From positions 1-62,690 of IMG/VR virus record IMGVR_UViG_3300048915_000098: a DNA stretch of 62,690 bases. One strand, 5' to 3'. How positions within the stretch are numbered: the stretch's first letter is position 1; every line of letters starts with the position of its first letter. The DNA comes from a virus. Under the pieces are notes generated by a model. It saw nothing but the letters and a program-made list of their open reading frames with translations. It was not told the DNA's origin and did no database searches. The position numbers were made by a program, and so were the translations under genes. Positions 3,332-62,690 of the stretch are shown here, one piece after another.

Positions 3332-4000
3332 TCAGAGGTTGAAGATCGAGGCGCCGCGGGCGACCACGTTGCGACCAGCGCCCGCGGCGATGCGGTTGGC
3401 CCAGCTCCTCGAGATGCCATGGCTTTCGGCAACCTCGCCGCGGTCGGCGCCAGCGCGGATCTGGTCGTGAACTTCCCTGGCGGCCTCGTTCGTGAGCGCG
3501 GAGCGGCGTGCGGCCGAGGCCGCCTTCGCTGCGGCCTGGGCCGGTGTGTTCAGCCGCCCGGTGTCGTTCAGCCAGCGAACGTATTCCCAGGGGGCGAGCA
3601 CGCGCACGCACTTCGGCGCAACGCAAAGCCGGTCCTGGCATTCAGAGACGACGAAATAGCCCTTGGGTGGCTGAACCTTGTTGCTCAGGAAGGCGACTTC
3701 ACGGCGCACAAGCACGGACTTGCCGCGCGTGCGTGCCTGCGGAACGCCTTCGCTGTTCGTGCCCTGCTTCCAGAGCCAGCAATCTCCGACGACATCGCAG
3801 CGGGCCTCGATGTCGGACAGCTTGAGCACCCGCGCCTTTGAGCGCTTGGCGGTCGGAACATCCTTTGCGCCCAACTCGCACATGATCTGGGCAGCCTCGT
3901 TCTCCAAGGCGGCCGTTTCCTCGGCGGCCAAAGCCATGAGATGGCGGCTGAGCTCGTATGCTGCAGCAACCTCGGCGGCGCTGATCGAGCGGTTGTGCAT
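3332..4000 (-). CDS. DNA-binding protein: degenerate HNH_3-like Cys core plus C-terminal HTH (222 aa)
   Basis: GDCWLWKQGTNSEGVPQARTRGKSVLVRREVAFL...SECQDRLCVAPKCVRV parallels the HNH endonuclease at 16879..17487, but the catalytic His positions are replaced. C-terminal HTH: GADRGEVAESHGISRSWANRI. Confidence 0.6.
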   Translation of the reverse strand: MHNRSISAAEVAAAYELSRHLMALAAEETAALENEAAQIMCELGAKDVPTAKRSKARVLKLSDIEARCDVVGDCWLWKQGTNSEGVPQARTRGKSVLVRREVAFLSNKVQPPKGYFVVSECQDRLCVAPKCVRVLAPWEYVRWLNDTGRLNTPAQAAAKAASAARRSALTNEAAREVHDQIRAGADRGEVAESHGISRSWANRIAAGAGRNVVARGASIFNL

Positions 4001-4962
4001 TACGCCGCCCTCAGCGACTTCTTCTCGAAGACACGCACGCCGTCGATCTTGGTGTTGGCGCCGAGTGCCTTGACGTAGGCCCGCATCTTCACGCCATCGA
4101 CGATCAGCAGGTTGGCGAGTTCAGGCTGAGTGTCGAGGCGCATGGCGATGTCGACGATGACCTTGGCCATGTTCTCGACTTCGTAGTCCATGGTCTTGCT
4201 GGTCGACAGGCCACTGACCTTCAGCGGCGCGGCAACGGTCGGCGCGGCAACGACGACGGCGGCCACACTCTGCACAGCGGCGACTTCGAGAGCGGCGGCG
4301 TGGGCGGCGGCGTCGCGCACGCGCTGCGCCTCCTGTGCCTCGGCCGCAGCCTTCTCGCTCGCAGCCTTGGCGGCAGCTTCCGCGGCGGCGGCGGCGGCGG
4401 CGTTGCCCGCGGCGGCCGCGGCGGCGGCTTCGTCGGCGAGGCGCTTCTGTTCGGCCGCGGCGGCGGCTGCACGCTCAGCTTCGGCGCGCACCAGCGCCTG
4501 GCGCTCCGCTTCAGCGCGGGCAGCGATAGCGCGCGCCTCATCTTCGAGGCGGCGGCGCTCGGCGGCGGCAGCCTCTTCGGCCGCACGTCTCGCGTCGGCG
4601 GCAATCTTCTCCTGCGCCGCTGTGTAGCCGAGCATCTTGTTCTTGATGATCGTCTCGGCCGCCTTCAGCGTCTTGAGGTGCGGCTGGAAGCGAGCGTTGA
4701 TCTTGTCGAGGATCGCGTTCAGCGGGCCCGTGAAGCCGGTGCGATCGGCCTCCATCGCCTTCCAAGCATCCTTGATGCCGGTGAGTTCGGCATGCGCGCA
4801 CTTGTAGTCGTCCTCCGTCTCGACACTCATGCTCTCGACCATGCGCAGGAACGAGTTCGCGCGCTTGGCGATGCGGACCGAGTCCGGCGCCACCATGGCG
4901 GCGATCGGCGCGAAGATGTTCTCCATCCCCTCGACGGGGCGCTCTTGGGTTTCCGTGGTCAT
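4000..4962 (-). CDS. Ala-rich coiled-coil protein of the recombination module (320 aa)
   Basis: Trimmed from the 397-aa ORF to ATG 4962, which overlaps the exonuclease stop (ATGA). Long AEAERAAAAAAEQKRLADEAAAAAAAG coiled-coil stretch flanked by globular ends. Confidence 0.65.
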   Translation of the reverse strand: MTTETQERPVEGMENIFAPIAAMVAPDSVRIAKRANSFLRMVESMSVETEDDYKCAHAELTGIKDAWKAMEADRTGFTGPLNAILDKINARFQPHLKTLKAAETIIKNKMLGYTAAQEKIAADARRAAEEAAAAERRRLEDEARAIAARAEAERQALVRAEAERAAAAAAEQKRLADEAAAAAAAGNAAAAAAAEAAAKAASEKAAAEAQEAQRVRDAAAHAAALEVAAVQSVAAVVVAAPTVAAPLKVSGLSTSKTMDYEVENMAKVIVDIAMRLDTQPELANLLIVDGVKMRAYVKALGANTKIDGVRVFEKKSLRAA

Positions 4963-5555
4963 TTCAGGTTGCTCTCTTTCCACTTGAAGACGTTGACGAA
5001 CGAGACGAACGTCGAGAAGTCGTTGGGGCTGGTGAACTCGTGCAGCCGGTACGTGCCGTCCGGCTTGAGTTGCAGCGCAGCGCGCTTGATTGAGGTCGGG
5101 CCCTTCTCGCCGACAAGCTCGCGCGGGAGCGCGCCGACATAGCCGGCCGTCTGCAGCGCGGTGGCCGGATTGATCGCCAGCGGCGTCTTCCAATCGATCA
5201 GCCAGCGGGCACCGTCGAATTCGGTGAGCAGGTCGAGCTTTCCGGCATAGCCGTAGACGGCGTGGTAGACCGGGAGCTCAGTCGCGATAACGTTGGTGAC
5301 CTTGTCACGTTTGAACTTCCGGTACCCCTCCAGATAGCCGCGCACGCTGCTGTGCACCGATTCCTCGACCAGGTCGTTCGCGTCATCCAGCTCGCAGGCG
5401 ATGTGCACGGCGGTGCCGAGTTCGGCCTTCGCCTCCAGAACATCACGCGACACCATGGAGAAGTCGAAGCACTGTTTGAGCACCTGGGTGACGGAAGGCA
5501 CCCGCGCGCCGTTCCATCGGTACTCGTGCAGATCAGCGTCGAACGTCAGCATCAC
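4959..5555 (-). CDS. PD-(D/E)XK family exonuclease
   Basis: Motifs GTAVH, YAGKLDLL, WLIDWKT and QTAGY. The start (GTG 5555 or ATG 5552) overlaps the recT stop. Confidence 0.75.
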   Translation of the reverse strand: MMLTFDADLHEYRWNGARVPSVTQVLKQCFDFSMVSRDVLEAKAELGTAVHIACELDDANDLVEESVHSSVRGYLEGYRKFKRDKVTNVIATELPVYHAVYGYAGKLDLLTEFDGARWLIDWKTPLAINPATALQTAGYVGALPRELVGEKGPTSIKRAALQLKPDGTYRLHEFTSPNDFSTFVSFVNVFKWKESNLK

Positions 5556-6496
5556 GAAGCCGCCAGCAGTTCCGACTTCAGGGCGTCGAATTGCTCCGCC
5601 GTCATCGTCGTGTCCATGGCCTTGATCTGCAGGCGGCCCAGCAGCGCCGAAACCTGCTCCTCGCCCATTTCGAGCGCAGCGATCTTCTGCTGCAGGTACT
5701 TGACCTGGCCCGGATTGATCGTCGACGCGGCGGCCGGCGTTTGCGCAGCCGGCTTCGGCGGCGGCGTCGTAGCTTGGGCTGGCGCGCTCGTGGCGCCCTC
5801 CTCCATCGTCGCGATGGGCGGCGTGGTTGCACCCTGTTCGCTCTTGCGCTGGGGCGTCAAGTTGGTCGGCGTGACAGTGCCGCTGGGGCCGAGGTCGAAG
5901 TCATAGGACTTGCCCTCCATCTCGTCAGCGGTCGGCTGGTTGCCGACTTCGGGGAACCCCTTGCGCAGCGCCTGCGCCTCGGCACACTTGGAGAGCTGCG
6001 CACGGACGCGCTTCTTCCACATCGCGTTCGGCATCTTGGAATCGCTGCCCGCAGTGGCGTAGTTCTCGGTCCAGTACTCGGTAGCCGTGAAGGCGCAACG
6101 CTGACCGCCGATCAGGCGATAAACCGTCACGCGGCACCATTCGGGGTACTGCATCACGAAGTCGCCGACCTTCAGGTCAAGCATCGGGCCGAACACCGGC
6201 TCATCGGTGCCGGCGTGCTCGCCAGTGCGCGCCGCCTGGATGCGGTACAGACCGATGGCGGGCATGACGGTGTCGCGCCATTCGTACTGGTCGCGCGAAC
6301 CTGCCTTCTTGCAGCGCATCGGCACGATGTGCGCTGGCTTGAGCATCGGGTCGAGGCTGCGCGCGGTGCAATAGCCCAGCACCAACTTGATCGACTCCCG
6401 CTTGGCGCCGGGAAACAGCGAGGCCTCCATGACGTCGAGCAGTTCGCTTTCGGTCAGCGCGAGCGCGCTGCGCTCGGTCGTCGTGACAGCATTCAT
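5552..6496 (-). CDS. recT: RecT-family single-strand annealing recombinase
   Basis: 314 aa. Contains LDPMLKPAHIVPM...IGLYRIQAARTGEHAG...NAMWKKRVRAQLSKCAEAQALRKGFPE, typical of RecT. Confidence 0.85.
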   Translation of the reverse strand: MNAVTTTERSALALTESELLDVMEASLFPGAKRESIKLVLGYCTARSLDPMLKPAHIVPMRCKKAGSRDQYEWRDTVMPAIGLYRIQAARTGEHAGTDEPVFGPMLDLKVGDFVMQYPEWCRVTVYRLIGGQRCAFTATEYWTENYATAGSDSKMPNAMWKKRVRAQLSKCAEAQALRKGFPEVGNQPTADEMEGKSYDFDLGPSGTVTPTNLTPQRKSEQGATTPPIATMEEGATSAPAQATTPPPKPAAQTPAAASTINPGQVKYLQQKIAALEMGEEQVSALLGRLQIKAMDTTMTAEQFDALKSELLAAS

Positions 6497-8460: not shown

Positions 8461-8859
8461 TTATCGCGTGGTGCACCGTGTCGCGTTGCCAACGGTTGTG
8501 CAGTTGGTGGTCATGCGAGATGGTTGCCAATTGGGCATTCCTGGCGCCGGCCCCCCGAATGGGAAGCCTGGAAGCGCGCCGTCCGATGGGCCGCAGGCGT
8601 AGCTCATGGAGAACCAAGTCACCGGGCCCGGAATCACGTCGTCGCCGAGGCCTCCTGCATGGCTCTCACTGGAGAGCACCTGGTAAGTGCCGCCGGGCGC
8701 GCAGCTCTTGGCCGCGAGTGCGAAGCACTTGCCCCTGTCTGACGCGCATTTCGCGGTTTTCACGAGGACGCCATTGGGCGCGCGGTACTCGCTGACCGAC
8801 TCGGTCGCGCAACCAGCCACGCAGGCCGCGAGCGCGAACGCTGCTGTTGAATGTCGCAT
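8461..8859 (-). CDS. Lipoprotein moron co-transcribed with the repressor (132 aa)
   Basis: Signal peptide plus lipobox: MRHSTAAFALAACVAGC. The start overlaps the repressor stop (TGATG). Cys-rich mature part. Confidence 0.7.
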   Translation of the reverse strand: MRHSTAAFALAACVAGCATESVSEYRAPNGVLVKTAKCASDRGKCFALAAKSCAPGGTYQVLSSESHAGGLGDDVIPGPVTWFSMSYACGPSDGALPGFPFGGPAPGMPNWQPSRMTTNCTTVGNATRCTTR

Positions 8860-9671
8860 CAGATCTTCCTTGCATTCCAGACCATCACCACTCGGCCCAA
8901 CACGCGCAGCTTCTCGCGCTCGGCATCGGCAATGACATAGGAGTCATAGGCCTTGTTGTCCGAGATCATCACGAAGGCGCCATCTGGTCGCTGCTGCAGA
9001 CGCTTGATGTACAGGCGGTCATTGAGCGACAGCACGTACACCGCGTCGAGCTTCACATCGTTGACGCTTCGGTCGACCAGCAGCGGGTCGCCATCCTCGA
9101 ACGTGGGGAACATACTGTCCCCTATGCCGGTAAGTATCCCCAGGTTGTTGGGGTGAGAAAAACTTGCGTGACGGCGCAACCAAGACTCGTCCACTTCCAT
9201 CGACATGACAACGCTTTCGCGGGACGGCTGATCTGCGCCTTGGCCCATGGACGCCCTCACGTCCATAACGGCCAGGCTCACCTTGCCCGCTGACCTCCGA
9301 TCTCGAATGTACTGAGCTGGGGGCTCAGTGACTGAGCTTGCGGCCGGCTTTGCGCCAAAGGCGACGATTTCGTCACGAGTGTCAAGAACTCCCGACAGAC
9401 GCGACCGCTTGCGGGGCTCATCGCTGTACGGGTGCTCAGTGTCCATCCAGTTGTTTGGCTTCGCGCAACCCGCCTCAAGGCGTCGGGCCATGACGGAACC
9501 CATCTCACGCACCTTGCCTGTCTTCGCGTCGACCGCTCCATTACGCAATTGGCTCAGGTAGACCGAGGACGTGCCGGCCCTTTCGGCGACGGCCTCCAAC
9601 GTCCCCTTCTCTTTGACCAATCGCTCGAGGTTTTCGAGGCGGATCTCAGCAACGGATTTCATGCCCGCCAT
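8859..9671 (-). CDS. cI-like repressor (XRE-type HTH plus S24/LexA autopeptidase)
   Basis: Trimmed from the 374-aa ORF to ATG 9671 (MAGMKSVAEIRLENL...; ATG 9662 is also possible). HTH: GTLEAVAERAGTSSVYLSQLRNG. S24 motifs: GDSMFPTFEDGDPLLVD and YIKRL. Confidence 0.85.
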   Translation of the reverse strand: MAGMKSVAEIRLENLERLVKEKGTLEAVAERAGTSSVYLSQLRNGAVDAKTGKVREMGSVMARRLEAGCAKPNNWMDTEHPYSDEPRKRSRLSGVLDTRDEIVAFGAKPAASSVTEPPAQYIRDRRSAGKVSLAVMDVRASMGQGADQPSRESVVMSMEVDESWLRRHASFSHPNNLGILTGIGDSMFPTFEDGDPLLVDRSVNDVKLDAVYVLSLNDRLYIKRLQQRPDGAFVMISDNKAYDSYVIADAEREKLRVLGRVVMVWNARKI

Positions 9672-9674
9672 TTG

Positions 9675-9752
9675 AAGCGCTGCGATTAAATCGGTCGATG
9701 AGCGGCGCGCTTCATTAAGCGCTTGACTCTCTTTAAGCGGCGCGCTTATCAT
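9675..9752 (+). promoter_or_regulatory. OR/PR region: PR-like promoter and 3-4 operator-like palindromes
   Basis: -35 TTGACT (9723..9728), 18-nt spacer, -10 TATCAT (9747..9752). Operator-like sites: AAGCG-GCG-CGCTT (9735..9747), AGCG-GCG-CGCTT (9701..9712), AAGCGCTT (9717..9724) and AAGCG-CTG-CGATT (9675..9687). Confidence 0.55.
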
Positions 9753-9758
9753 GCCGCA

Positions 9759-10034
9759 ATGAACCTCACAGAATGGACGGCGCAGCGCGGCCGGCAAACC
9801 GAATTGGCACTCGCGCTGGAGTGCGATCCCCAACTCGTTGGCCAGTGGGCAAACGGCCGTCGCCCGATCCCGCCTGCCAGACGGCCAGCCATCGAAGCCG
9901 CCACGCAGGGCGATGTCCGGTGCGAGGACATGGGCGACGACGTCGTCTGGCGCCGCGTTCCTGACAAGGCATGGAAGTGGCACCCGAAGGGCCGCCCGCT
10001 GCTCGACCTGACGCGTGTCGCGAGGGTTGCGTGA
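9759..10034 (+). CDS. Cro/YdaS-like HTH regulator (91 aa)
   Basis: Trimmed to ATG 9759. GRQTELALALECDPQLVGQWANGRRPIPPARRPAIEAATQGDV is a YdaS/Cro-type signature. Divergent from the repressor. Confidence 0.75.
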   Translation: MNLTEWTAQRGRQTELALALECDPQLVGQWANGRRPIPPARRPAIEAATQGDVRCEDMGDDVVWRRVPDKAWKWHPKGRPLLDLTRVARVA

Positions 10035-12341: not shown

Positions 12342-12623
12342 ATGCAACAAGCTGATTGGGTTGGTGCGCCGACCGCTGCCGTCAAGCCCTTCAAGGACAT
12401 CCGCAACACCCGCGAGAGCGTTGCCGAGGAAAAGGCGCGACTCGTGATGGAACTCGGATGGCTCTTCCGCTCGCCCCCCCCCAGCGTCGTCAACGGATCC
12501 ATCCAAAAGGTGCGGCAGTGGACGGCCGCGCGCGAAGCCGCCCGCAAGGTTGCGGCCAGTGCGCGATCCAGCGCGCACGACCTGCGATCAGCGATCACCA
12601 GCATGCAAGGGTTTGAAGCATGA
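12342..12623 (+). CDS. Hypothetical protein (93 aa)
   Basis: Trimmed to ATG 12342 with an AGGAG RBS (12332..12336). Confidence 0.6.
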   Translation: MQQADWVGAPTAAVKPFKDIRNTRESVAEEKARLVMELGWLFRSPPPSVVNGSIQKVRQWTAAREAARKVAASARSSAHDLRSAITSMQGFEA

Positions 12624-14587
12624 GGGGCCCAATTTCCCGCCCGCGCCAGCGCCCCACATCGGTCGCGAAGGCCGCGCGCCAGTTCATCCTGGGGCTCGAT
12701 GACGGGCTCATCATCGACGAATTCGCCTGCGGCGGCGGCATGTCCGAGGCGATCGAGCAGGCCTTGGGCCGCCACGTCGACCATTCGGTCAACCACGACG
12801 ACGACGCCTGCAGCCTGCACCAGGCGAACCACCCGCAGACGATCCACCACTGCGCGGACGTCTTCGGCCGCGAGGTATCGCCGGCGTCGATCGAGCCCGA
12901 TCGTCCGATCGATCACCTTCACCTGAGCCCGGACTGCACGGACCATTCCCAGGCCAAGGGCGGCCAGCCGCGCTCGGTCAAACGCCGCGGCCTCGCCTGG
13001 ATCGGCGTGCGCTGGGCGGCGCTGCCCGCGTGGCGCCGGCCGAAGGTGATCTCGCTGGAGAACGTGAAGGAGGTCTTGCGCTGGGGCGCCCTGATCGCCA
13101 AGCGTTGCCCGAAGACCGGCCGCGTGGTCAAGGTCGACGGCTCGGTGGCGGCCAAGGGCGAGCGCGTGCCGCGCCGCGAGCAGTACCTGATCCCCGATCC
13201 CGCCCGCGCTGGCCAGACGTGGCAGCGGTTCGTCGGTGCGCTGCGCGCGCTGGGCTACACCGTTGACTGGTGGGCGTTAAACGCGGCCGACTTCGGCACG
13301 CCGACGACGCGCACGCGCCTGTTCATGGTCGCGACCTGTGACGGCATCGCGCCGATCCGCCCGCAGCCGACGCACTTCAAGAACCCGGAGCTGGGCCAGC
13401 AGAAGTGGCGCGCCGCGGCGGAGTGCATCGATTGGTCGATCCCGGCGCGGAGCATCTTCGGGCGCAAGAAGGATCTGGCCGACGCCACCATGCAGCGCAT
13501 CGCGCGCGGCATGTGGAAGTTCGTGCTGGGCCCGGACGCGAAGCCGTTCATTGTCAACAACCTCACGAACAACGTGCCGCGCGGCGTCGACGAGCCGATG
13601 GCGCCGATCCTGACAGGTGGCCACAAGGCTGTCGTCTCCCCCATGATCGCCCCCGTCACGCACAGCGACAAGCGAGTGCACGACGCCAGCGCCCCGCTGC
13701 CCACCATCACCACAGCCAAGGGCGGAGAGTTCGCGCTGGGCGCGGCGACGATCGTCAAGTTCAAGGGCGAGAGCCCGGGCACTGCCGCCTCCGATCCGCT
13801 GGACACCGTCACGGCCAAGGGCCACGGGATGGGGGCGCTCTCTGCCTTCATCGTCCAGGCCGGCCATGGCGAAGGGAAAGGCGCGTCGAAGCGCCGGAGT
13901 TACGGCGTCAATGATCTGGGCGGCCCGGTTGGAACCATCACGGCAAGCGGCGGCGGCCAGTCGATCGCAACCGCCTTCATGCTGCAGGCCAACGGGGGCT
14001 TCAACGATCAGCGCGGCTCGCCCGGCCACGCAGCCGACGAGCCCATGTCGACGATCGGCACGAAGGGCGCCGCCCAGCAGCCAGTCGTCGCGCACATGGT
14101 GCACCTGCACAACAACTGCGACGCGCGCGCGGCCAACGAGCCGCTTCGCACCGTTGGCGCCAGCGGTCAGCACCACGGCGTCGTCGAGTATCGACTCGCC
14201 AAGGAGCACGAGGAGGGCGCGCTGCGCTGCGCGGCGTTCCTGCTGCGCTATCACCGCGACGGCGGGCAGTGGGCCGACCTGCACGAGCCGGCGACGACCA
14301 TCACCACGAAGGATCGCCTGGCGCTGGTCACTGTCTGGTTCCGCGGCGAGCCCTGGGTCATCGTCGATATCTGCCTGCGCATGCTCACGCCGCGCGAGTT
14401 GGCGCGCGCGCAGGGCTTCCCCGACGACTACATCCTTGAGCACGGGCACGACGGCCGCAAGTTCTCCCAGGCCACGCAGGTCTGGATGATCGGAAACAGC
14501 GTTCCGCCGCCGCTCGGACGAGCGGTGATCGCCGCGCAATGGGACGTTCGTCGCCCCGGCGCTGAGCGGTATCGGGAGGCTGCTTGA
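12620..14587 (+). CDS. DNA (cytosine-5) methyltransferase, 655 aa, with an expanded repeat-containing variable region
   Basis: Motif I EFACGGGMS, IV SPDCTDHS, VI SLENV, VIII TRTRLF, then QGFPDDY, and X IGNSVPPPL. About 330 aa lie between motifs VIII and IX. Confidence 0.9.
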   Translation: MRGPISRPRQRPTSVAKAARQFILGLDDGLIIDEFACGGGMSEAIEQALGRHVDHSVNHDDDACSLHQANHPQTIHHCADVFGREVSPASIEPDRPIDHLHLSPDCTDHSQAKGGQPRSVKRRGLAWIGVRWAALPAWRRPKVISLENVKEVLRWGALIAKRCPKTGRVVKVDGSVAAKGERVPRREQYLIPDPARAGQTWQRFVGALRALGYTVDWWALNAADFGTPTTRTRLFMVATCDGIAPIRPQPTHFKNPELGQQKWRAAAECIDWSIPARSIFGRKKDLADATMQRIARGMWKFVLGPDAKPFIVNNLTNNVPRGVDEPMAPILTGGHKAVVSPMIAPVTHSDKRVHDASAPLPTITTAKGGEFALGAATIVKFKGESPGTAASDPLDTVTAKGHGMGALSAFIVQAGHGEGKGASKRRSYGVNDLGGPVGTITASGGGQSIATAFMLQANGGFNDQRGSPGHAADEPMSTIGTKGAAQQPVVAHMVHLHNNCDARAANEPLRTVGASGQHHGVVEYRLAKEHEEGALRCAAFLLRYHRDGGQWADLHEPATTITTKDRLALVTVWFRGEPWVIVDICLRMLTPRELARAQGFPDDYILEHGHDGRKFSQATQVWMIGNSVPPPLGRAVIAAQWDVRRPGAERYREAA

Positions 14588-16609: not shown

Positions 16610-16882
16610 ATGACGACAACGAACGGATCCCGCTTGCATGCGGTTGAAATCTTCGCAGCGCTCATGAAGGAACCCTGCACGAAGGAGCAACTCTGCGAGC
16701 GCGTAGGCATCTCCGACAGCGCCGTTCGGAACTGGCTTCACGAGCTGCGCCGGTCGGGTGTGGTCCGGGTCTGCGGGTTCGTCCGACGCGCCGCGTCCGG
16801 CTACCCGGCGCGCGTCTTCTGCCTTCAGTCCAAGCCGTTCGAGCTGCCCGACGTGCCCTATCGCCGAAAGGACTTGGCATGA
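16610..16882 (+). CDS. Winged-helix DNA-binding protein (90 aa)
   Basis: Trimmed from the 222-aa ORF to ATG 16610. Contains CTKEQLCERVGISDSAVRNWLHELRRSGVVRV. Confidence 0.65.
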   Translation: MTTTNGSRLHAVEIFAALMKEPCTKEQLCERVGISDSAVRNWLHELRRSGVVRVCGFVRRAASGYPARVFCLQSKPFELPDVPYRRKDLA

Positions 16883-20115: not shown

Positions 20116-20318
20116 AGGTCACGCTCACGAAGTGGGCGGCGGCGCGATACGATCCGCTGCCCAGCCTCTGGACGCTCAGGAGATGGGCGCGTGAGGGCGA
20201 ACTGCACCCTCCGCCCGAACTGGTCGGGAAGACGTACTACATCGACGAGAACGCGCGCCGACTGTCCATCCCTGAACCGAAGGCCACGCTGGTCGATCGC
20301 ATGAAAGCCACCGCGTGA
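20112..20318 (+). CDS. xis: Excisionase (lambda Xis-like)
   Basis: MKVTLTKWAAARYDPLPSLWTLRRWAREGELHPPPELVGKTYYIDENA resembles lambda Xis. Lies directly upstream of int. Confidence 0.75.
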   Translation: MKVTLTKWAAARYDPLPSLWTLRRWAREGELHPPPELVGKTYYIDENARRLSIPEPKATLVDRMKATA

Positions 20319-21403
20319 ACGCAGCACGTCGCTCCCGCCGCAAGCAGGACTGGCCGCGAGGCCTGTACGAGCCGCGGCCCGGCTACTTCGTCTGGAGGCA
20401 CCCGAAGACCGGCGAGACCATGGCCATCGGCCGCACGACCGTTGCCGACGCGCGCAACCAGGCGTTGGCAGCGAACCAGCACGTTCTGGACACTGCGCCG
20501 ACGCTGATCGAGCGGATGGAGGGCAGGGAGCACACGGTCGCGGATGTGCTGGACGTGATGCCCGAAGCCGAGAACGCCAACACGGCGAAGTCGCAGCGCT
20601 CGCTGGACAAGCGCATCCGTGCAAAGCTGGGCGGCAAGCACTGCGGCCGGCTGTCGGTCAGGGACTGCGCCGACATGCTCGATGAGATTGTCGAGGACGG
20701 CCACGCGCGCACGGCTCAGGCGGTTCGTTCACGGCTAATCGTGGTGTGCAAGAAGGCGCTGGCCAAAGGCTGGATGGAGAGCAACCCGGCCGAGGTGACG
20801 GAGGAGATCGAGGTCGAGGTCAAGCGCGGCCGGTTGACGCTCGAGATGTTCCATGCGGTCTACGAGAACGCACCCGAGGTGTGCGAATGGCTGCAGGCGG
20901 CCATGCGCCTGGCGCTCGTCACGGGCCAGGACCGGTCCACCATCTGCGACATGGAGCGATCACACGTCGCCGATGGCTTCCTGACCGTCTGGCGCACGAA
21001 GACCCGCGAGACCAATCAGCCCGTCGATATTCCCCTCGCGCTGCGCCTGGACGCGGTGGGCTGGTCGCTCGCCGACCTGGTCAAGCCGCGAACCGGCGTG
21101 CTGTCGAAGTACCTCGTCCACCACGTCCAGCCTTGGGGCAACGCGCCGGCGGGCTCGCCGATCCACGTCAACGCCTTGTCGCGCAGCTTCACCGAGGCCC
21201 GCATCCTGGCCAAGATCCCGGACGTCGGGCCAGACGGCAAGGGCGCGCCGACGTTCCATGAGATCCGGTCGCTGTCGAAGCGCCTCTACGCCGCCCAGGG
21301 CGGTGTCGACACCAAGGCCCTGCTCGGCCACAAGACCGACAAGGCGGCAGACCTGTATGCCGACCCGCGAGGCGTCGAACACATCCGTGTGCGCATCGCC
21401 TGA
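20315..21403 (+). CDS. int: Tyrosine integrase (lambda Int family)
   Basis: 362 aa, GTG start. The C-terminus has HEIRSLSKRLY...LLGHKTDKAADLY (the R..H-x-x-R..Y catalytic pattern). Confidence 0.9.
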   Translation: MNAARRSRRKQDWPRGLYEPRPGYFVWRHPKTGETMAIGRTTVADARNQALAANQHVLDTAPTLIERMEGREHTVADVLDVMPEAENANTAKSQRSLDKRIRAKLGGKHCGRLSVRDCADMLDEIVEDGHARTAQAVRSRLIVVCKKALAKGWMESNPAEVTEEIEVEVKRGRLTLEMFHAVYENAPEVCEWLQAAMRLALVTGQDRSTICDMERSHVADGFLTVWRTKTRETNQPVDIPLALRLDAVGWSLADLVKPRTGVLSKYLVHHVQPWGNAPAGSPIHVNALSRSFTEARILAKIPDVGPDGKGAPTFHEIRSLSKRLYAAQGGVDTKALLGHKTDKAADLYADPRGVEHIRVRIA

Positions 21404-28000: not shown

Positions 28001-29317
28001 GTCCAGGCCAATCGGCCCGGGTGCCGGCGGCGCGGCCGCAGTCGTGTCGGCTGTCGTGGTCGGCGTCGCATCGGCCGGCGGCGGGTTCGCGCTGTCGATC
28101 TCGCGCGCCGCCGCGGCGTTGCCGTCGCCGTGCGCCAGCGAGTGCGCAGCATGGAACAGGTGGCCGGCGGCCAGCGGCACGCCCGGCACAGCCAGCGTCA
28201 GGAGCGTGGCGGATTTCGCCGTCGCGGCGATGTCGTGCAGCATGTCGTCGGCGGACATGTTCGGCTTGAGGCCGCCCGGCGCCATCTTGTCGTACAGGTC
28301 GCCCAGGACGGTCGTCGCCTCCATCCCGCCCACGTTCGTGGTCAGCGCGTGGCCGAGCGCGGCGATGGCCTGGCCAGCCGGTGCGCCCGACACCGCCTTC
28401 GTCAGCGCGCCGGTCAAGCCTGGAACCTGCGTGCGCAGCCCGACGTAGTTCGCCAACGCCATGGCCGTGCCGCGGCTGACCGCTTCGCCGGGCGAGTCGC
28501 CGGCCTGCCGCGCGTCGGCGTACCCGTCGACGCCGGCCTGCGTGACCATCGCCCCGAGGCCGGCCGGCCCTGCCACCAGCGGCGCGAGACTGAAGACGCC
28601 GGCCACGGTCTTGACCGTGTCGGAATCCTCGTTGCCCTGCATCGCGCGGTTGATGCGCGCGTCGGCGGCGGCCTGGTACTGCCGGCCGAGAGTGCGCAGG
28701 CCTTCGGTGTCGGTGACCTCGCCCGCGGTGGTCATCAGGTTGGCCAGCGTCTTGCCGGCCTGCCCTGCCGCGGCGTTGTAGCCGGCCTGCACCGGGTTCT
28801 GAGGGATGTCGTCCCAGGCCTTGCGGCGCGCGGCCGCCTGGTCGATCGCGACGGCTTCCGTGTGCGGGATCACCGGCTTGGTGACCGGCGCGGGCGGCCC
28901 GACGGGAATACCGCCCGCCGAGGCCGCGTCGATCATGTCGGCATGGGACATCGGCGCAGGTGCAGGGGGCGGCGCGGCCACGGTCGACGTCGCGAATGGG
29001 CTTTCTCCCGCTTCGCTGGAATGCGCGAGCGAGGCCAGCCCGGACTTCACGCTGTCGACGGCGCCGGACGCGGCGTCCGCGACGCTCGCGGCGGCCGACT
29101 TGATCGTGCCCATGACTGAATCGGCGAGCGATGGCGCGGGCGCTGCGGCGGCCGCGGGGGGCGCCGCCTGCCGGCCGCCGTCGATGTTGGCGATCCCGCG
29201 GCCACCGAAGTCCGTCGCGGCGCGCGCGGCGACGTCACCCGGGGTCAGGTCATCGGGAGCGTTCTGGTAGACGTGGCTGGTGCCGTCGGCGAAGGTGACC
29301 GTGATGTTGCGCGGCAT
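22019..29317 (-). CDS. Giant polyvalent virion/ejection protein (2,432 aa)
   Basis: One uninterrupted ORF. Pyrophosphatase-like motif DGDHVDTFIG (27350..27379). ART-like WFGDSKVVDEHGEPQVMFHGT (26654..26716). HEVLGH (25823..25840). PRTase-like VVVDDVTTMGGT (24962..24997). Hydrophobic C-terminal third. Confidence 0.9.
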   Translation of the reverse strand: MPRNITVTFADGTSHVYQNAPDDLTPGDVAARAATDFGGRGIANIDGGRQAAPPAAAAAPAPSLADSVMGTIKSAAASVADAASGAVDSVKSGLASLAHSSEAGESPFATSTVAAPPPAPAPMSHADMIDAASAGGIPVGPPAPVTKPVIPHTEAVAIDQAAARRKAWDDIPQNPVQAGYNAAAGQAGKTLANLMTTAGEVTDTEGLRTLGRQYQAAADARINRAMQGNEDSDTVKTVAGVFSLAPLVAGPAGLGAMVTQAGVDGYADARQAGDSPGEAVSRGTAMALANYVGLRTQVPGLTGALTKAVSGAPAGQAIAALGHALTTNVGGMEATTVLGDLYDKMAPGGLKPNMSADDMLHDIAATAKSATLLTLAVPGVPLAAGHLFHAAHSLAHGDGNAAAAREIDSANPPPADATPTTTADTTAAAPPAPGPIGLDTLHDSIDEAARTVGLSPKATAALREAAAQRDPQDAATFVARAFHRMEANGLTTKPGAPGAFRDALAQRVAAQQPEQPAAAPTPKAGKSSVADQLAAIRPPEPTPAHDAAAPEDAAPAPIAPTAMAQANDIADAAHQAATSPFNDRPEPTDAQKAAGNYPMGHVQLHGLDITIENPQGSVRSGVDPDGKPWSNEMQAHYGFIRGTRANDGDHVDTFIGPNPESKIAYVIDQVDPATGKFDEPKTILGADSEAQARQLYAANYADGWNGLGAITPLPMDAFKAWVRDGVKSKPLGDITQWSPTDERAQPDVAEPAGVPAGAGDGGGGPAVASGGDLGSNADVAGARGVGGDAAAPAAGARAPAAVDVGGGADAALMPAEPAPRLLGKPVDQWADEKLAKIVDSAAATARARDVARAELARRTTSTPEFKKWFGDSKVVDEHGEPQVMFHGTSKTEDGDAFSAFDSYASEHGLFGQGSYFTADPKIASDYTTKGKGKSPTVYPVHLSIKNPIDMDKPVTRELSAWQKAFPDVDFENTDRKPRNGETYTNEDFYRIAEDHLIDEGLPKWEGAEIMQEGLRSMGYDGITHIGGGRIKGDSTKHRVFIAFDPEQVKSAIGNRGTFDPESADIRLKQSTEPVRKGVSPDVLRAEVTRIQAGWKDAPPVHVVDDVNGLPNHIQDSLRSMGAEGKTRALLMPGRGSDPGDVYLIASRLKDVPMAQAALFHEVLGHYGIRKVLGSDATYFAEMYKLRQANPELAKEAEAWMQAHGRGAIADRMSRGLSQEAAMRVVRALSTEEALADRAGRGEPIRGLQKLMAKIQEWLRSVGLHSVADQLEKMTEAETAALLARARRAVEADAGGGEVAGDLVPATSRPVREQGIPEGAKELGGGVAVDDLKAQPDYKAAKAGDPDAAVRVVNALVKAEDIEAARKLGPGIVYAYPHAEEASGRNAIPAMLAHKYAAETGGEVDSDIVQTNRAFHTGANAMERMVARPDFSGQVEPGRKYVVVDDVTTMGGTLAELADHIRAGGGEVVGVATLADASRAPTMVAPKRQTAEIESRYGQTVRDELHVDPRALTGAEAGYLIGFRNADELRNRVAAAAQAHAERVRQEGVRQSDAGGDAPLLSQHAGDESGDVPDIHEPSKLAEVFGKVREAAATAADAARKLRDEAVRITAPMALGTDQTRALVKDFANADRLARWQWDKFDSVIAKNYDEAQRREMWEAADQEGVLRQQGKEPGPGEGLNRLTPDQRATVDALHNYGESLLQRAKAVGMFEGEGLPYWTPRMAVMIDGAGEYSRPKGGNVEGSGTQGRNIVTTASSLKGRKHLTAEDTEAAMKGKLGEGAQLVRDIRTMPLAMSRLERAIAGRELVNQIKAYGDKAGMKTVSTSEEPGFVTFDSPALKTWRVTSNEDGSKTFERVPLYVSKDFEGPLKAVMTEKPNEIYNALMALKGKSMGLIMYSPLIHNAVEWGRALPAMPGKVATFQIYFEGNRIKNDPAQMRQAISDGLVPIGRRGGIQDITGIMEDPSLTPGRSWTAKLIGGALGLASEKAGTAAKKAIDRAGDIWHNTLLWDRVGDLQAGLYGSIREHEISKGMDPAAAGKVAAHFANRFAGALPNEAMSVAARRTANLLMFSRTFTLGNMGLMKDMMTGLPRDVRAQIKVSAGELAAAAATSRARRIAIASFILDIGLMYVGNSLMQSAFEHWKDKKTWGDVGQGYAERLHKLLKRAGDHPLDTLSNPFDAVNALSSTSENEPGKEDRIRVGTSADGTAIYMRLPTGKVGEDFKNWITKPLVTAKAKESQLVRPLQQVWNNDNGIGQRIYDPDAPGLGGVLTNAGRIAKLFATQMIPADAIAGAWDWKKGTATDVDKLKTVGPFAGLTFSKGAPGGPAVGQMYAADRKFEGAKMDVMPQVKQAIKDGDDDKAIALLEGIKMPPSQIMTTLRHLQMPESRLSAGAFRRFSQRASDDDLEKMNELLDAERKREAVKTEKAAATADED

Positions 29318-57690: not shown

Positions 57691-57719
57691 GAAACGACAA
57701 AGCCGCCTCGATGGCGGCT
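57691..57719 (-). terminator. Rho-independent terminator ending the leftward early operon
   Basis: Minus strand: AGCCGCC-ATCGA-GGCGGCT followed by TTGTCGTTTC. Confidence 0.55.
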
Positions 57720-57903
57720 TCGGGTGGAAGATTTTGCAGACGGCTCCGCCACTAAGCGGAGTCTGCGTTTTATTCTGGCCTGGTTCGTCTGTCAGGCTAT
57801 GGTTGCGCTGGTTACTATGCCTGCGGCAAAACCTTCCGTCAAGCAATTCGAGTGCCCAGCCGAGTTCTAGAGCGCAGGCCCTGTGCGCCTCTCCGGCGTG
57901 TGC

Positions 57904-57919: not shown

Positions 57920-58219
57920 ATGTCGTTGGAGCGCCTTCCCCACTACCGCTGGCGCATGCGCAGCCAGACCATCCCCGGCCGAATGGTCACCAGCGAGCTC
58001 ATGACGGAGCGGCAGGCGAAGGCGGCCGATCCTGACGCGGTGCCGCTGCCGGGCACGCTGGAAATGCGGGTGGTCGACGAGGACGAGCCGGAGGCGTTCG
58101 ATCCCTATGACCCGCGGTGGACACGACCTGACCACCGGTGCGCATGCGCTCGGCGATCGGGTGCGGCCCGGGCAACCAGACGCGGTCAGCGTCGAAGCCG
58201 CGTTGAAGTTCGGCCTTGA
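57920..58219 (+). CDS. Plus-strand hypothetical protein (up to 99 aa)
   Basis: High GC3 from 57920 to about 58110 (MSLERLPHYRWRMRSQTIPGRMVTSELMTERQAKAADPDAVPLPGTLEMRVVDEDEPEAFDPYDPRW). The tail overlaps a convergent gene. Confidence 0.45.
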   Translation: MSLERLPHYRWRMRSQTIPGRMVTSELMTERQAKAADPDAVPLPGTLEMRVVDEDEPEAFDPYDPRWTRPDHRCACARRSGAARATRRGQRRSRVEVRP

Positions 58220-58343
58220 GGTCGACGTGCTCGCGAGCGCCGCACCTGCATGCTCGTTCAGCAGGGACGCTGAAGCCATTCCAGGCGGTGTCATCCCAGG
58301 AATGGCGGTGGAGCGCGCGGCGGATACGTTGAATGAGCGTCAT
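57999..58343 (-). CDS. Hypothetical protein (up to 114 aa)
   Basis: ATG 58343 overlaps the upstream stop (ATGA). Good GC3 for about 70 codons (MTLIQRIRRALHRHSWDDTAWNGFSVPAERACRCGAREHV...), then degrades. Confidence 0.5.
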   Translation of the reverse strand: MTLIQRIRRALHRHSWDDTAWNGFSVPAERACRCGAREHVDLKAELQRGFDADRVWLPGPHPIAERMRTGGQVVSTAGHRDRTPPARPRRPPAFPACPAAAPRQDRPPSPAAPS

Positions 58344-59569
58344 GGCAGTTCCACCGTCTCGCCCAGCTTCGAAGCGACGTAGGCGCGCATGGCGGCGACG
58401 AGGTACGTTCGACCCGTTTGCTCATGCTCGCCGCTGATGTTCGTGTCGCTGTCTATGTCCCAGCGCCCGACACAAGCGCGGAACCCTTCGCGGTTGCGTT
58501 CGCTCACGTTCTCACCCCAGGAAATCCACGTCTTCTCGACAGCGACTCCCTCGCGATCGAGGATCGGGCCGCCCTGCTCCCATGCGGTCGACGGACACCA
58601 GTCGAAGCGGCCATCCCCTGCGCGGGCCGGGCCGAGCACGCAGGCTTCCGCGCGGTCGCCGTCGCCCGGGTCGATCCAAAACGACGGGAATCCCTCCGCC
58701 TTGGCGACGGCAGCGTCCAGCAGCGCGCCAGTCAGCTCGGCGACCTTGTGAGTGGACATCCTCATTCCTCCTTCGCCCAGCTCGTCACGATCAGTCGAGG
58801 CCTGTCGGCTCAGCATCGCCACCTCCTGCGGCACCCCTGCACCAGCAGAAGGGTGGATCACGCCGAGCGCGCGAATGGTCGTCGGCGTCTTGACCGTCCC
58901 GGCGTCCGCTTTGGCTGCAGCCAACGTGTCGCGCGCCGGGAACATCGGCGCATCGGTGAAGACCGAGCAGACCTGCCACGCCACTGCCTTCTGCGCTTCG
59001 CTGGGGGATGCGCTGGCCGCAACGTCGGCGAATAGGCGCTTGAACTCGTCGACCGACGGCACGATGGGCACCCGATGGCCGCTGTCCAGGCCCAACGCGT
59101 TGCTGATAGCGAGGATCCAGTCGCGATCACGCTCGGCCGTAGGCTTGGCCTCGACTGCGGGAGCATCGATGCGCACGAAGCGTCCGTCGTCGAACTCGCT
59201 CGCGACTCGGTCCCACAGGACGCCGGTCGCGCTGCGATAGATCACCCGGGAAAGCTCGGGGTTTGCCTCGTCGATCGCACGGCAGATCAACTCGTACTCG
59301 CCGCCCGACTTGACGTGGCGGTAGAACTGGCGCTCCTCCACCGGGCTATCTGCCCTACTGGCGAGGTCGCGGAGGCGGTCGATGGTGGAGGAAAGCTGTG
59401 CGAGCTGTTCGCGCGCTTGCTTGTCGTACTTCTCCTGCTGCTTCCACGAGTCGCGCTCGTCGGCCACGCCTTGGCTGTAGGCGCTGCTGCTCAACTGGCG
59501 AGCCAGCCGATTCGCCTCCTCCGCCAGCCTCGCCGCTTCGGCGTCTTGTGGGGTAGTGTTGGGGGTCAT
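58340..59569 (-). CDS. Multidomain protein with DUF1653-like and NinX/DUF2591-like modules (409 aa)
   Basis: FYRHVKSGGEYELICRAIDEANPELSRVIYRSATGVLWDRVASEFDDGRFVRI is DUF1653-like. KVAELTGALLDAAVAKAEGF...WCPSTAWEQGGPILDREGV is NinX-like. Confidence 0.7.
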   Translation of the reverse strand: MTPNTTPQDAEAARLAEEANRLARQLSSSAYSQGVADERDSWKQQEKYDKQAREQLAQLSSTIDRLRDLASRADSPVEERQFYRHVKSGGEYELICRAIDEANPELSRVIYRSATGVLWDRVASEFDDGRFVRIDAPAVEAKPTAERDRDWILAISNALGLDSGHRVPIVPSVDEFKRLFADVAASASPSEAQKAVAWQVCSVFTDAPMFPARDTLAAAKADAGTVKTPTTIRALGVIHPSAGAGVPQEVAMLSRQASTDRDELGEGGMRMSTHKVAELTGALLDAAVAKAEGFPSFWIDPGDGDRAEACVLGPARAGDGRFDWCPSTAWEQGGPILDREGVAVEKTWISWGENVSERNREGFRACVGRWDIDSDTNISGEHEQTGRTYLVAAMRAYVASKLGETVELP

Positions 59570-60339
59570 GCATACTCCAGTTGCAATTGCGGTTCAGGCT
59601 CAGGCTCGTCGGGGATCACGACGGAGAAGTCCCAGCGCGGCGGCGAGTTGTTGGCAGGGTTCTCGATGCGCTCGCGCATGACCGCAGCGCGGCCTTCCTT
59701 GGTGGAAGGAAGGTAGACGCCATTGGCCCAATTGACGTCCTTGCCGATGTTCTGGCCGATGTTCGTGCTGTCGACGCTGGCGAACGGGAATCGCGACGAA
59801 ATGGCCCCATCCAGCATCCGCAGACCGTGGAACTTGCAGAGCGGATACCCGTCCTCGTCACATGCGACCTGCATCGCCTGGGCCATACGTTGCCACCATG
59901 CAGGGGTTTTCAGCTTGGCAAACTCCCCCGAGCTGCCGAAACACACGCGCGGCCACTCACGCACCAGCCGTTGCAACCGACCGAGCGATTCGTGAAGGTG
60001 CCACACCGGCGCGCCAAAGTTCTTCCCCAGCGGCCACGCGGCCAGCAGCGCGTCGTTCTGTTCCTCGTCGCCATCGATAACGTCTGGAACGACTGCGAAG
60101 TCGCATGACGGGATGCGTCGGCATTCCGCTGCCCAATCGTAGAACGGCTTCCAGTCTGTGATCGGCTTGCCTTTGCGCCAGGCGCTGAACGCCCCGTTGT
60201 CCAGCGCGAAGGATTGGCAGACCGAGATGGCCAACGGTAGCTGCCGGTAGTCGGAGAACGGGACGAACGCGTGGCCGCGTGCTATTGCAACGACAGCCGC
60301 GGTTTCAGGCGTGATAGGCAAGCCTTCGTACGGAATCAC
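59566..60339 (-). CDS. TGT-fold / DpdA-like DNA transglycosylase candidate (257 aa)
   Basis: The CDS itself is solid. The family call is tentative. It rests on FALDNGAFSAWRKGKPITDWKPFYDW, VVPDVIDGD, VCFGSSGEF, KFHGLRML and FASVDSTNIG, which resemble DpdA/TGT motif order (DSGAF ... HGLG ... SxDS). Confidence 0.45.
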   Translation of the reverse strand: MIPYEGLPITPETAAVVAIARGHAFVPFSDYRQLPLAISVCQSFALDNGAFSAWRKGKPITDWKPFYDWAAECRRIPSCDFAVVPDVIDGDEEQNDALLAAWPLGKNFGAPVWHLHESLGRLQRLVREWPRVCFGSSGEFAKLKTPAWWQRMAQAMQVACDEDGYPLCKFHGLRMLDGAISSRFPFASVDSTNIGQNIGKDVNWANGVYLPSTKEGRAAVMRERIENPANNSPPRWDFSVVIPDEPEPEPQLQLEYA

Positions 60340-61262
60340 GCACTACCCTCCATGCGCTCGCTCACCTCGCCCGCCTTCAGCCACGGCTCAGCAAGCACCA
60401 GTCGGCGCGTGCGATCAGCGGCGATAGCAGCACGCGCCATCTTCAGGTGCGGCGTGGCGACATGCGGATAGACCTTCAGCAGCAAGGCCGTCAACTCGCT
60501 GTCCGTCATGTCCACCTGCGCCCCCATGACTCCCTGCACGCTCGCCGATGCAGCCCGCGCAATCGCGGCATTGACGGGTTGGAGCGTGAAGCTGTCGATG
60601 CGCCCAGCCGGCACCAACCTGTCGTCGAGCAGGCCCTGCACGATGTCGCGCAGTTCGGTCAACGCTTCCAGCAGCTCGCCGCTCGCCAATGCAGTCGAGC
60701 CCGCACGGGGTGGCTGCTCGTAGGTGTCGATGAGTCGGCAAATGTTGGAATGAACGTCCGATGCGTGGGCATAGCGTTCGTCTTCCAGAGCATCGGCGTA
60801 CTCACTGATCGCTCGCTTCAGCTCAGACTTCCACGCCACCGGCTCTCCCGCCACTGCATCGACAGCCTGGATGGGAGCGGCTGAGGGGAGGCGCATCCAG
60901 CCCACGCAGTCCTTTTGGTTGCGCGGGATGCAGGTTCCGGCGTCAGGCATCCAGCCCTCGCGCGGGCAGCCGGCGATCTTGAGGCGCGGACTGTCCTCGG
61001 CCGAGGCCCACGCTCCGATGCAGATCCACTCCGATTGACCGCTGACCCATCGGAGCAGCACCCGCTTGATCGGATTCTTCGGCGCCGTCTCGATGGGCTG
61101 CCACATCCCTTGGGCAGTCGCATTGAGGGCGCGGTCGGCCATGACGGCGGCGCGGGCGTAGGCTTCGATCTCTTCGCGAACCATTTTGGGGTGCGGAATG
61201 TCCTCGGTGGCGAGAAGCAGATCAACAGGCAGCGGTTGGAGGGTGATGGGCTTGTCGGTCAT
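60336..61262 (-). CDS. DUF551-containing protein (308 aa)
   Basis: WQPIETAPKNPIKRVLLRW...WICIGAW...GWMRLP is the DUF551 signature. Confidence 0.7.
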   Translation of the reverse strand: MTDKPITLQPLPVDLLLATEDIPHPKMVREEIEAYARAAVMADRALNATAQGMWQPIETAPKNPIKRVLLRWVSGQSEWICIGAWASAEDSPRLKIAGCPREGWMPDAGTCIPRNQKDCVGWMRLPSAAPIQAVDAVAGEPVAWKSELKRAISEYADALEDERYAHASDVHSNICRLIDTYEQPPRAGSTALASGELLEALTELRDIVQGLLDDRLVPAGRIDSFTLQPVNAAIARAASASVQGVMGAQVDMTDSELTALLLKVYPHVATPHLKMARAAIAADRTRRLVLAEPWLKAGEVSERMEGSA

Positions 61263-61598: not shown

Positions 61599-61771
61599 GA
61601 TGCGAGTTCCTTGGTGGTGGCCTGGCGAATTCCGTAGAACCGGACGAATCGCTGCCATGCCTCGAACGCCAATAGCGGCGACTCGCCCTGCCCGAAGCCG
61701 CCCCCGCCGAAGCAAACCCAGACGCGCGAGCCGTAGGGACAGTAGCCGCTCTTTCGAATGCGTGGCTTCAT
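61595..61771 (-). CDS. Small hypothetical protein (58 aa, below the track cutoff)
   Basis: My translation: MKPRIRKSGYCPYGSRVWVCFGGGGFGQGESPLLAFEAWQRFVRFYGIRQATTKELAS. ATGA overlaps at both ends. Confidence 0.5.
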   Translation of the reverse strand: MKPRIRKSGYCPYGSRVWVCFGGGGFGQGESPLLAFEAWQRFVRFYGIRQATTKELAS

Positions 61772-62425
61772 GATGCGAGTCCTATGGCGACAAGTTTGGC
61801 GATGTTGATGAGTACGTCCCTGAATTCGGGGGGTGTGGCATTGCGGATTCGGGTCTTGTTCTTGCCGCCGACCATCGCGACGACACCGATGCGCCGGGCC
61901 TTCTCATAGCCGTAGCGCTCCACCATCCAGTCGGGCAAGCGCTGCGCTCCGCGCGACCAGTTCAGCTCGGGTAGATCGCGCTTCTGCATGCCGCACGCAA
62001 TCAGCCAGGTGGGTTTGCGGCTGCTGTGACCGTAGTGACCCTGCTCGACGTAGCAGACCCATACCCCGTGCTCTCGGTCGAACTCCCACCCGGCGCCTTG
62101 CTTGGGCTTGAGGATGCCGAATGCGTCCCACGCCTTGCTGTGCGCCGGATGTTCCAACACGCCACCGAAGCGCTTCAGGGCTTTGAATGCTGCCTCGAAG
62201 CATCCACCGTCGTCGCCGAGTTTGAACTGGTGCGGCTTGCGCGTGCTGCCGTGCCAGAAGCGGCCCCAGCGTTGACACGGTGAAGTGGCAAATCACTGGA
62301 TGCGGGCCGGCGTACTTGCGCGCATCCCGCACCTCGTCCCACGGGTCGACGCCAGTCAGGCCGAAGTAGGCGCCGCCCGTCTCGACGTACAGAGCAGCGA
62401 TTTGCGCTCCCTCGCTCATATTCAT
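61768..62425 (-). pseudogene. Frameshifted gene (needs a +1 shift near the T3 run at 62290..62292); compact C5-methyltransferase-like motif order
   Basis: The frame from ATG 62425 gives MNMSEGAQIAALYVETGGAYFGLTGVDPWDEVRDARKYAGPHPVI. The +1 frame continues ATSPCQRWGRFWHGSTRKPHQFKLGDDGGCFEAAFKALKRFGGVLEHPAHSKAWD...TRIRNATPPEFRDVLINIA to the stop at 61768. Confidence 0.55.
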
Positions 62426-62464: not shown

Positions 62465-62690
62465 TCAGGCGGCCTTGGCTTCCGAGGGTGCCTCGAACCA
62501 GAGCGACGCGAGGTACGCGACGCCAGCCGCCTTGTGCTCGTGCTTGGGCGCCCACGAGCCCTGGATCGCGGCCAGATGGCGCATCGCGGTCTTGACATCG
62601 ATGCCGGGCTTCGGCACCGGGTAGCCCTTGAGTCCGCTGAAGAACCAGTCCGACTGCCACTGAGTCCACTTGTTGCCGTTGTGCCGCTTG
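62465..62690 (-). CDS. 3' part of the wrap-around gene (see 1..231)
   Basis: In-frame continuation ...AMRHLAAIQGSWAPKHEHKAAGVAYLASLWFEAPSEAKAA, with the stop (tca) at 62465..62467. Confidence 0.7.
   Translation of the reverse strand, partial: KRHNGNKWTQWQSDWFFSGLKGYPVPKPGIDVKTAMRHLAAIQGSWAPKHEHKAAGVAYLASLWFEAPSEAKAA
62570..62690. repeat. Terminal direct repeat, right copy (identical to 1..121)
   Basis: See the left copy. Confidence 0.95.

Follow-up and report, generated by a model that had tools for sequence, protein, structure and literature searches.

The virus record IMGVR_UViG_3300048915_000098, analysed here over its whole stretch of 62,690 nt (hereafter the window, to whose scale all coordinates refer), carries on its minus strand, at 59566..60339, a singleton gene of the DpdA family. 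The open reading frame (ORF) starts with GTG and encodes 257 amino acids, predicted to form a minimal (beta/alpha)8 DNA guanine transglycosylase. A first-pass annotation of this DNA had pointed to four motifs in the product, and all four were located in the translated ORF: FALDNGAFS (residues 44-52), VVPDVIDGD (83-91), KFHGLRML (169-176) and FASVDSTN (186-193). A Shine-Dalgarno-like GGAGGG, read from the sequence, lies 6 nt 5' of the start codon (60346..60351, minus strand), and 4-nt overlaps tie the gene to both of its neighbours, GTGA at the start, shared with an ORF of 308 amino acids, and ATGA at the stop, shared with an ORF of 409 amino acids. Homologues of the protein fall into more than 7,200 clusters at 90% identity. 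The closest of them, which are 63-82% identical, are metagenomic or Pseudomonas-prophage sequences, and the ratio of nonsynonymous to synonymous substitution rates (dN/dS) against four homologues in this range is 0.10-0.19. The abundance of homologues, the low dN/dS, the GGAGGG and the overlaps with both neighbours clearly mark ORF 59566..60339 as a real and well-conserved gene under purifying selection, not a chance ORF.

The product is a member of the phage DpdA family, enzymes that replace guanine in DNA with a 7-deazaguanine base. Against PHROGs it matches phrog_887, annotated as 'queuine tRNA-ribosyltransferase', with E=8e-65, and a tblastn search with it recovered 108 phage records, the top identity being 54.6%. 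When the validated DpdA of Escherichia phage CAjan served as the query, its sole match in the six-frame translation of the window was ORF 59566..60339 (E=9.5e-5). An alignment of 60 sequences of the window subfamily, ranging from 28 to 71% identity, was compared by hhalign with a profile of the CAjan DpdA1 family, and the two aligned over 152 columns with 97.6% probability (E=2.8e-12). Residues D47, G49, A50, P85, D86, N95, H114, H171, P185 and D190 are invariant in the 60 sequences, and several of them fall in register with invariant residues of DpdA1, pairing D47 with D63, H114 with H132, H171 with H187 and D190 with D206.

The AlphaFold2 model of the protein (predicted local distance difference test score, pLDDT, 94.5; predicted TM-score, pTM, 0.89) consists of eight alternating strands and helices, the (beta/alpha)8 arrangement of a triose-phosphate isomerase (TIM) barrel. 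D47, D86, H114, H171 and D190 are located at or just past the C-terminal ends of strands 3, 4, 5, 7 and 8, respectively, on the catalytic face of such a barrel. The active site of the bacterial DpdA comprises D95 (acid/base), F99, D130 and H181 (base edge) and D256 (nucleophile), and the D95A and D256A substitutions abolish activity (PMC10164549). In the window protein D47, F51, D86, H114 and D190 follow one another in the same order and spacing. By analogy with the bacterial enzyme, D47 would thus be the acid/base and D190 the nucleophile of a putative active site that also takes in F51, D86, H114 and H171-G172. Among the 60 diverse members, little or no variation is seen at the presumed stacking Phe, the catalytic Asp pair and the putative Asp and His of the base edge. 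A Foldseek search against BFVD returned 29 matches at E<=1e-3, all of which, where named, are annotated as phage 'queuine tRNA-ribosyltransferase'. The phrog_887 match, the profile alignment with the quoted motifs in register and the TIM-barrel model bear out the proposal of the first-pass annotation that the gene encodes a DpdA-type transglycosylase with a fold like that of the tRNA-guanine transglycosylases (TGTs).

With the DpdA1 enzymes of Escherichia phage CAjan and Enterobacteria phage 9g, validated for dPreQ0 and dG+, the window family shares the DxGAFS, H, HG and DS(S/T) motifs, which align. DpdA1 differs in being about 306 residues long, with an N-terminal extension of about 55 residues and a C-terminal region that is longer; it invariably occurs in a cluster with FolE, QueD, QueE and QueC and modifies about 25-30% of G, whereas the window is without the pathway. 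The bacterial DpdA of the S. Montevideo Dpd restriction-modification island, for which a crystal structure is available, has the TIM core and the residue order (acid/base Asp, Phe at +4, base-edge Asp/His, nucleophile Asp) in common with the window protein, but it is about 400 residues long, contains the insertions Ins1, 2, 3 and 8 and a structural zinc site (CxCx2Cx22H), and needs the DpdB ATPase, none of which is present in the window. The TGTs (bacterial TGT and the archaeosine enzyme ArcTGT; PF01702) have their fold in common with the window protein at the level of the superfamily. Unlike them, it is devoid of a zinc subdomain, an N-terminal beta-sheet lid and the insertions that read tRNA.

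The absence of a phage-encoded route to preQ0 can be judged on a whole genome. Because of an exact 121-bp direct repeat at its ends (1-121 and 62570-62690), the window reads as a genome that is complete, circular (or terminally redundant) and about 62.57 kb long. It has a guanine-cytosine (GC) content of 66% and includes an integrase (20315..21403, plus strand), which marks it as a temperate phage, together with an S24 repressor, RecT, an exonuclease, NinG, a NinI-like phosphatase, a portal protein, TerL, a major capsid protein and a holin. A search for tRNA genes was negative. PHROGs and Pfam scans of the approximately 58 window ORFs revealed no FolE, QueD, QueE, QueC, QueF or YhhQ, and six-frame phmmer searches of the window with the pathway proteins of CAjan, DMCA, Pam5 and two relatives' contigs discussed below (L013 and L014) gave a best value of E=0.012, which was rejected. 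That value belongs to a match between a DMCA protein and ORF 57999..58343, considered as a QueD-like candidate and discarded: Pfam lends the ORF no support, and the DMCA protein for its part is a borderline, truncated match to 6-pyruvoyl-tetrahydropterin synthase. Nor does the window contain an importer or a nucleoside 2-deoxyribosyltransferase-like gene. With no FolE, QueD, QueE, QueC or YhhQ homologue in a complete genome, the window dpdA gene is confirmed as an orphan, as the first-pass annotation had stated.

Orphan status of this kind has been described before. In their 2019 survey, Hutinet et al. described a 'third group' of 76 phages that have DpdA but no preQ0 or G+ genes, the largest 7-deazaguanine-related group of phages in that work, and proposed that such phages rely on host preQ0 or on imported precursors (PMC6884629); an orphan DpdA is therefore not unusual, and the idea of host supply had already been put forward. 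The window gene is a new example of the class described in 2019 and not a new kind of system. Supplementary Data 1 of that paper lists BTP1 (SIU02687), SPN3UB, SfI, HK106, SEN1, PEAT2 and 7-11 as DpdA-only, and the singleton DpdAs form similarity clusters of their own, one of them gamma-proteobacterial, for which functional divergence was suggested (PMC6884629). By tblastn, the window protein is 34-48% identical to BTP1, SPN3UB, SfI, HK106 and 7-11 members over 83-91% of the query; the protein of 7-11, a phage without pathway genes, is 34% identical. DpdA-only phages of Salmonella (BTP1, SPN3UB, SEN1, 7-11), Shigella (SfI), E. coli (HK106) and Pectobacterium (PEAT2) resemble the window in the protein, which is homologous from end to end at 34-48% identity and of similar size, about 235-260 residues, and in the lack of preQ0 and G+ genes. 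In the temperate ones the location of the gene agrees as well, behind the recombination genes in the early-left accessory region. The window differs from them in its novel backbone, with its high GC content: pieces of 4.7 kb and 25 kb had no megablast match among phage genomes, and the best match of its portal protein is 39% identical. A literature search found no later papers in which a singleton DpdA from a temperate phage was tested.

Further evidence comes from the surroundings of relatives. Thirteen loci carrying the window DpdA subfamily were surveyed; a 7-deazaguanine-related gene is adjacent in four of them, and none has the full pathway. A QueE-like radical S-adenosylmethionine (SAM) gene (TIGR04508, E=1.6e-29; CAjan QueE, E=7e-18) abuts a homologue 52% identical to the window protein, transporter genes of the Vut_1/YhhQ type lie one to two genes from homologues that are 66% and 43% identical, and a borderline QueD-like gene abuts one that is 38% identical. 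This linkage to QueE-like, QueD-like and Vut_1 genes supports a role in 7-deazaguanine metabolism. As an observation apart, a 132-residue nucleoside 2-deoxyribosyltransferase-like gene (PF05014) occurs near the DpdA homologue in two unrelated contigs, L013 (10747-11627) and L014 (8974-10004), accompanied in one by a Vut_1 transporter and in the other by a radical-SAM gene resembling QueE. The deoxyribosyltransferase-like gene could represent an accessory of singleton-type DpdA modules that has not been described before.

Taking the sequence evidence together, we consider it probable that the window gene is a minimal 'DpdA-only' phage DpdA which inserts host-made preQ0 into phage DNA in a sparse or site-specific manner, as a measure against restriction. 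In the proposed scheme, DpdA would be expressed during lytic growth from the early accessory gene block. D190 would attack C1' of a target deoxyguanosine in duplex DNA, with D47 protonating the leaving guanine, and the covalent enzyme-DNA intermediate would be resolved by a free 7-deazaguanine base, completing a double displacement. Since the phage encodes no FolE, QueD, QueE, QueC or importer, the incoming base would most likely be preQ0 from the host queuosine pathway; with the host pool as the sole source, the modification is expected to be sparse or motif-restricted, at well under 1% of G. The modified DNA might then blunt restriction and other DNA-targeting defences alongside the C5 methylase of the phage itself. 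Within this scheme we infer that the enzyme acts on DNA, that the incoming base is preQ0 and that the phage gains protection from restriction. There is precedent for supply by the host: 9g DpdA or nt-1 DpdA2, when present alone in E. coli, yields dPreQ0 from the host pool at 0.03-0.3% of G, and insertion of dPreQ0 by phage DpdA in E. coli is lost in a queD mutant (PMC6884629, PMC10516641).

Several observations weigh against the proposal. Pfam returns no family for the window protein even at E<=10, PF01702 included, NCBIfam gives no meaningful match, and none of the 240 listed homologues has a precomputed Pfam domain. Searches of PDB sequences by phmmer and by profile hmmsearch with the family found no significant match to a solved TGT or DpdA, and the PADLOC model of bacterial DpdA has no match to the window or 7-11 proteins and a weak one to CAjan. 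(The family aligned with the single E. coli Tgt sequence at 0.1% by hhalign, a one-sequence template being too weak to inform.) Foldseek against the PDB brought up generic TIM barrels only, at E>=1.7e-3, with TGT not set apart: archaeosine TGT ranks 39 (E=0.02), below generic TIM barrels, and the ArcTGT entry 1j2b has the highest query TM-score (0.52) of the top 50 matches. The CxCx2C...H zinc site was not found in the window protein, whose six Cys residues (41, 73, 79, 133, 160 and 168) form no CxCxxC, and the approximately 67 residues that follow the nucleophile Asp contain no large Ins8 insertion for contact with DNA or tRNA. Moreover, hhalign places D86 three residues before the Asp of the DpdA1 'LDG' motif, and D86 is therefore named here as a candidate base-recognition residue only. 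Turning from the protein to its setting, nine of the 13 surveyed loci, like the window, have no nearby 7-deazaguanine gene. The direct chemistry reaches neither the window DpdA nor any relative at least 48% identical to it, and the singleton phages that were analysed showed trace dADG (7-11, at 0.02% of G) or no modification (mycobacteriophage Orion) (PMC6884629). Lastly, supply of preQ0 by the host is an assumption, made because Proteobacteria generally possess the queuosine pathway. The closest named homologues of the protein are from Pseudomonas, and a scan of genome contigs recovered two loci only, in a Terriglobia metagenome-assembled genome and in Yersinia, from which no host can be deduced.

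Part of this weight is removed by the validated enzymes themselves. Relatives of DpdA1 likewise have no Pfam domain, TGT included, their profile has no match among PDB sequences, and their consensus has no CxCxxC. The Pfam, PDB and zinc negatives are therefore not peculiar to the window protein, and the lack of a Pfam match constitutes no argument against membership of the DpdA family. As PF01702, the bacterial DpdA model and the solved structures are not matched, the link to TGT runs by way of phage DpdA1 and not directly.

An alternative explanation, which we judge unlikely, is that the protein is an active transglycosylase with other substrates, inserting preQ1, 7-carboxy-7-deazaguanine (CDG), queuine or a 7-deazapurine salvaged from the environment, or acting on host tRNA. 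DpdA2 enzymes are promiscuous for preQ0, preQ1 and CDG (PMC10516641), and the modification in the DNA of 7-11 is dADG, not dPreQ0 (PMC6884629). The Vut_1 importers and the nucleoside 2-deoxyribosyltransferase-like gene of relatives suggest salvage over the canonical preQ0 route, and contig L014 has QueE as its sole pathway gene, which would yield CDG. On the other hand, every DpdA tested so far puts preQ0 into DNA (PMC10516641), the window protein is without the insertions by which TGTs recognise the anticodon loop of tRNA, and neither of the genes suggestive of salvage, importer or deoxyribosyltransferase-like, has a counterpart in the window.

Decidedly unlikely, in our estimation, is a diverged TIM barrel that carries out no base exchange and acts as a DNA glycosylase, as a DNA-binding anti-defence factor or as an enzyme on a nucleotide or another small molecule. 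The separate clustering of singletons with its possible functional divergence, the unmodified DNA of Orion (PMC6884629 for both) and the stripped-down barrel without a zinc subdomain would all be in keeping with such a protein, as would its place in BTP1 and E. coli prophages among accessory genes of the anti-RecBCD and ral types, which suits a generic anti-defence role. Against it stand the near-invariance across 60 diverse members of the residues expected to carry out base exchange, namely two catalytic Asp residues, an Asp-His pair at the base edge and a stacking Phe, and the recurrent linkage to QueE, QueD-like and Vut_1 genes, which is hard to explain if the substrate is not a 7-deazaguanine.

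More doubtful still is the broader idea that the zinc-less singleton DpdAs of temperate phages, at about 250 residues, constitute a distinct functional branch. Such enzymes might, in place of hypermodifying DNA in bulk with preQ0, set a sparse, motif-specific mark using a salvaged or host 7-deazapurine, possibly not preQ0, and might cooperate with the nearby family that resembles C5 methylases and bears a PPC(Q/E)RWG motif. The idea is prompted by hints from relatives: a Vut_1 importer, a nucleoside-deoxyribosyltransferase-like partner and a partner that is QueE alone. Finally, one might take the gene for a remnant that no longer functions or for an ORF called in error, citing the lack of pathway partners in the genome and the frameshifted neighbour at 61768..62425; this view is scarcely credible and effectively refuted by selection and conservation, given the dN/dS values, the intact frame, the ribosome-binding site, the translational coupling, the thousands of homologues and the confident fold.

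If the proposed use of host preQ0 is correct, one small gene would be enough to give the progeny of a prophage partial protection from restriction or Cas enzymes, while also exposing that progeny to the recently described glycosylases that target 7-deazaguanine. The window DpdA subfamily alone amounts to more than 7,000 clusters at 90% identity, mostly from temperate phages and prophages. The window supplies a clean, complete, high-GC example of the DpdA-only class and opens no new question.

The ORF upstream of the window dpdA (60336..61262, minus strand, 308 amino acids), whose stop overlaps the dpdA start, has no PHROG, Pfam, NCBIfam or PADLOC match. The downstream ORF (58340..59569, minus strand, 409 amino acids), whose start overlaps the dpdA stop, ends in a P22 NinX domain (PF10765, phrog_4389), which is confined to the last 135 or so residues; the N-terminal 270 or so residues have no significant match. 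Both genes were considered as conserved partners of DpdA and set aside, neither being found in the other loci. PADLOC likewise reported no Dpd match (DpdB ATPase, dpdC-K) among the dpdA neighbours. A further ORF of 114 amino acids (57999..58343, minus strand), of uncertain coding status, has an ATGA overlap with the 409-residue gene, and the succession of overlaps along dpdA and these two ORFs suggests translational coupling. On the 3' side of the block a terminator-like hairpin (57698..57722, minus strand; 10-bp stem with seven G-C pairs), recognised by match to a consensus only, possibly marks the end of the transcription unit ahead of the holin and late genes.

On a larger scale, a cI/LexA-like repressor with a Peptidase_S24 domain (8859..9983, minus strand) lies upstream of RecT (5552..6496), of the exonuclease (4000..5193) and, across the circular junction, of the dpdA block, all on the same strand. 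The homologues in BTP1 and in a lambdoid prophage of E. coli belong to a pL-type operon in the order cI - N - ral - cIII - kil - recombination - anti-RecBCD - DpdA - int. The description of the window gene as part of an early-left operon is, in view of this synteny and of the repressor and recombination genes upstream, a fair analogy, but it is unproven.

The first-pass annotation had also noted two genes related to DNA methylation. The larger, elsewhere in the genome and on the opposite strand to dpdA, is indeed a C5 cytosine DNA methyltransferase of 655 amino acids (12620..14587, plus strand; PF00145, E=6e-27). Methylases 45-48% identical to it adjoin the DpdA homologue in phage Epa33 and lie about 2 kb from it in a P. 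fluorescens prophage. Unusually long C5 methylases (655-696 amino acids), in which a large insertion separates the N-terminal PF00145 segment from the C-terminal one, recur with the DpdA subfamily in phages and prophages, in the window and in L001 (8740-10830) and L007 (4086-6080).

The smaller gene (61768..62425, minus strand), which had been called a compact C5-methyltransferase-like gene, is harder to sustain in that role. It is frameshifted, a 1-nt insertion after 'PHPVICH' dividing it into two frames, and it belongs to phrog_12600, a family of unknown function with 1,115 representative clusters, typically of 205-230 amino acids. The family conserves the motifs AHPPC(Q/E)RWG (in intact relatives), GGVLEHP, YGHxARKxTWLY and ATPxxFRD and has no Pfam, NCBIfam or PDB-sequence match; there is thus no profile match to a C5 methyltransferase as defined by PF00145 with SAM motif I, PCQ and ENV, and hhalign against genuine C5 methylases gave 0.2%. 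What speaks for the label is a structural resemblance below threshold. A model of the C-terminal 174 residues (pLDDT 92.1) gave only sub-threshold Foldseek matches in the PDB (E>=0.1, TM-score about 0.3), yet C5 cytosine methyltransferases account for about 40 of the top 50. The family may be a derivative of the C5-methylase core that lacks a target recognition domain.

The disruption of the window copy is not unique in the family. In contig L013 the homologue (9069-10004), just upstream of the DpdA homologue that is 66% identical to the window protein, is frameshifted at another place, after about residue 106, and many database representatives align with just one half, first or second, of the 61768..62425 query. 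Mis-assembly of high-GC DNA, repeated inactivation or programmed frameshifting could account for these splits.

Two minor features of the genome deserve mention. An ORF of 2,432 amino acids (22019-29317, minus strand) stands at the end of the virion module and may encode a giant ejection or tail protein. The genome has an HNH endonuclease gene on either arm (3332-4000, minus strand; 16879-17487, plus strand), and both genes are related to the same families, phrog_1872, phrog_826 and phrog_3593.

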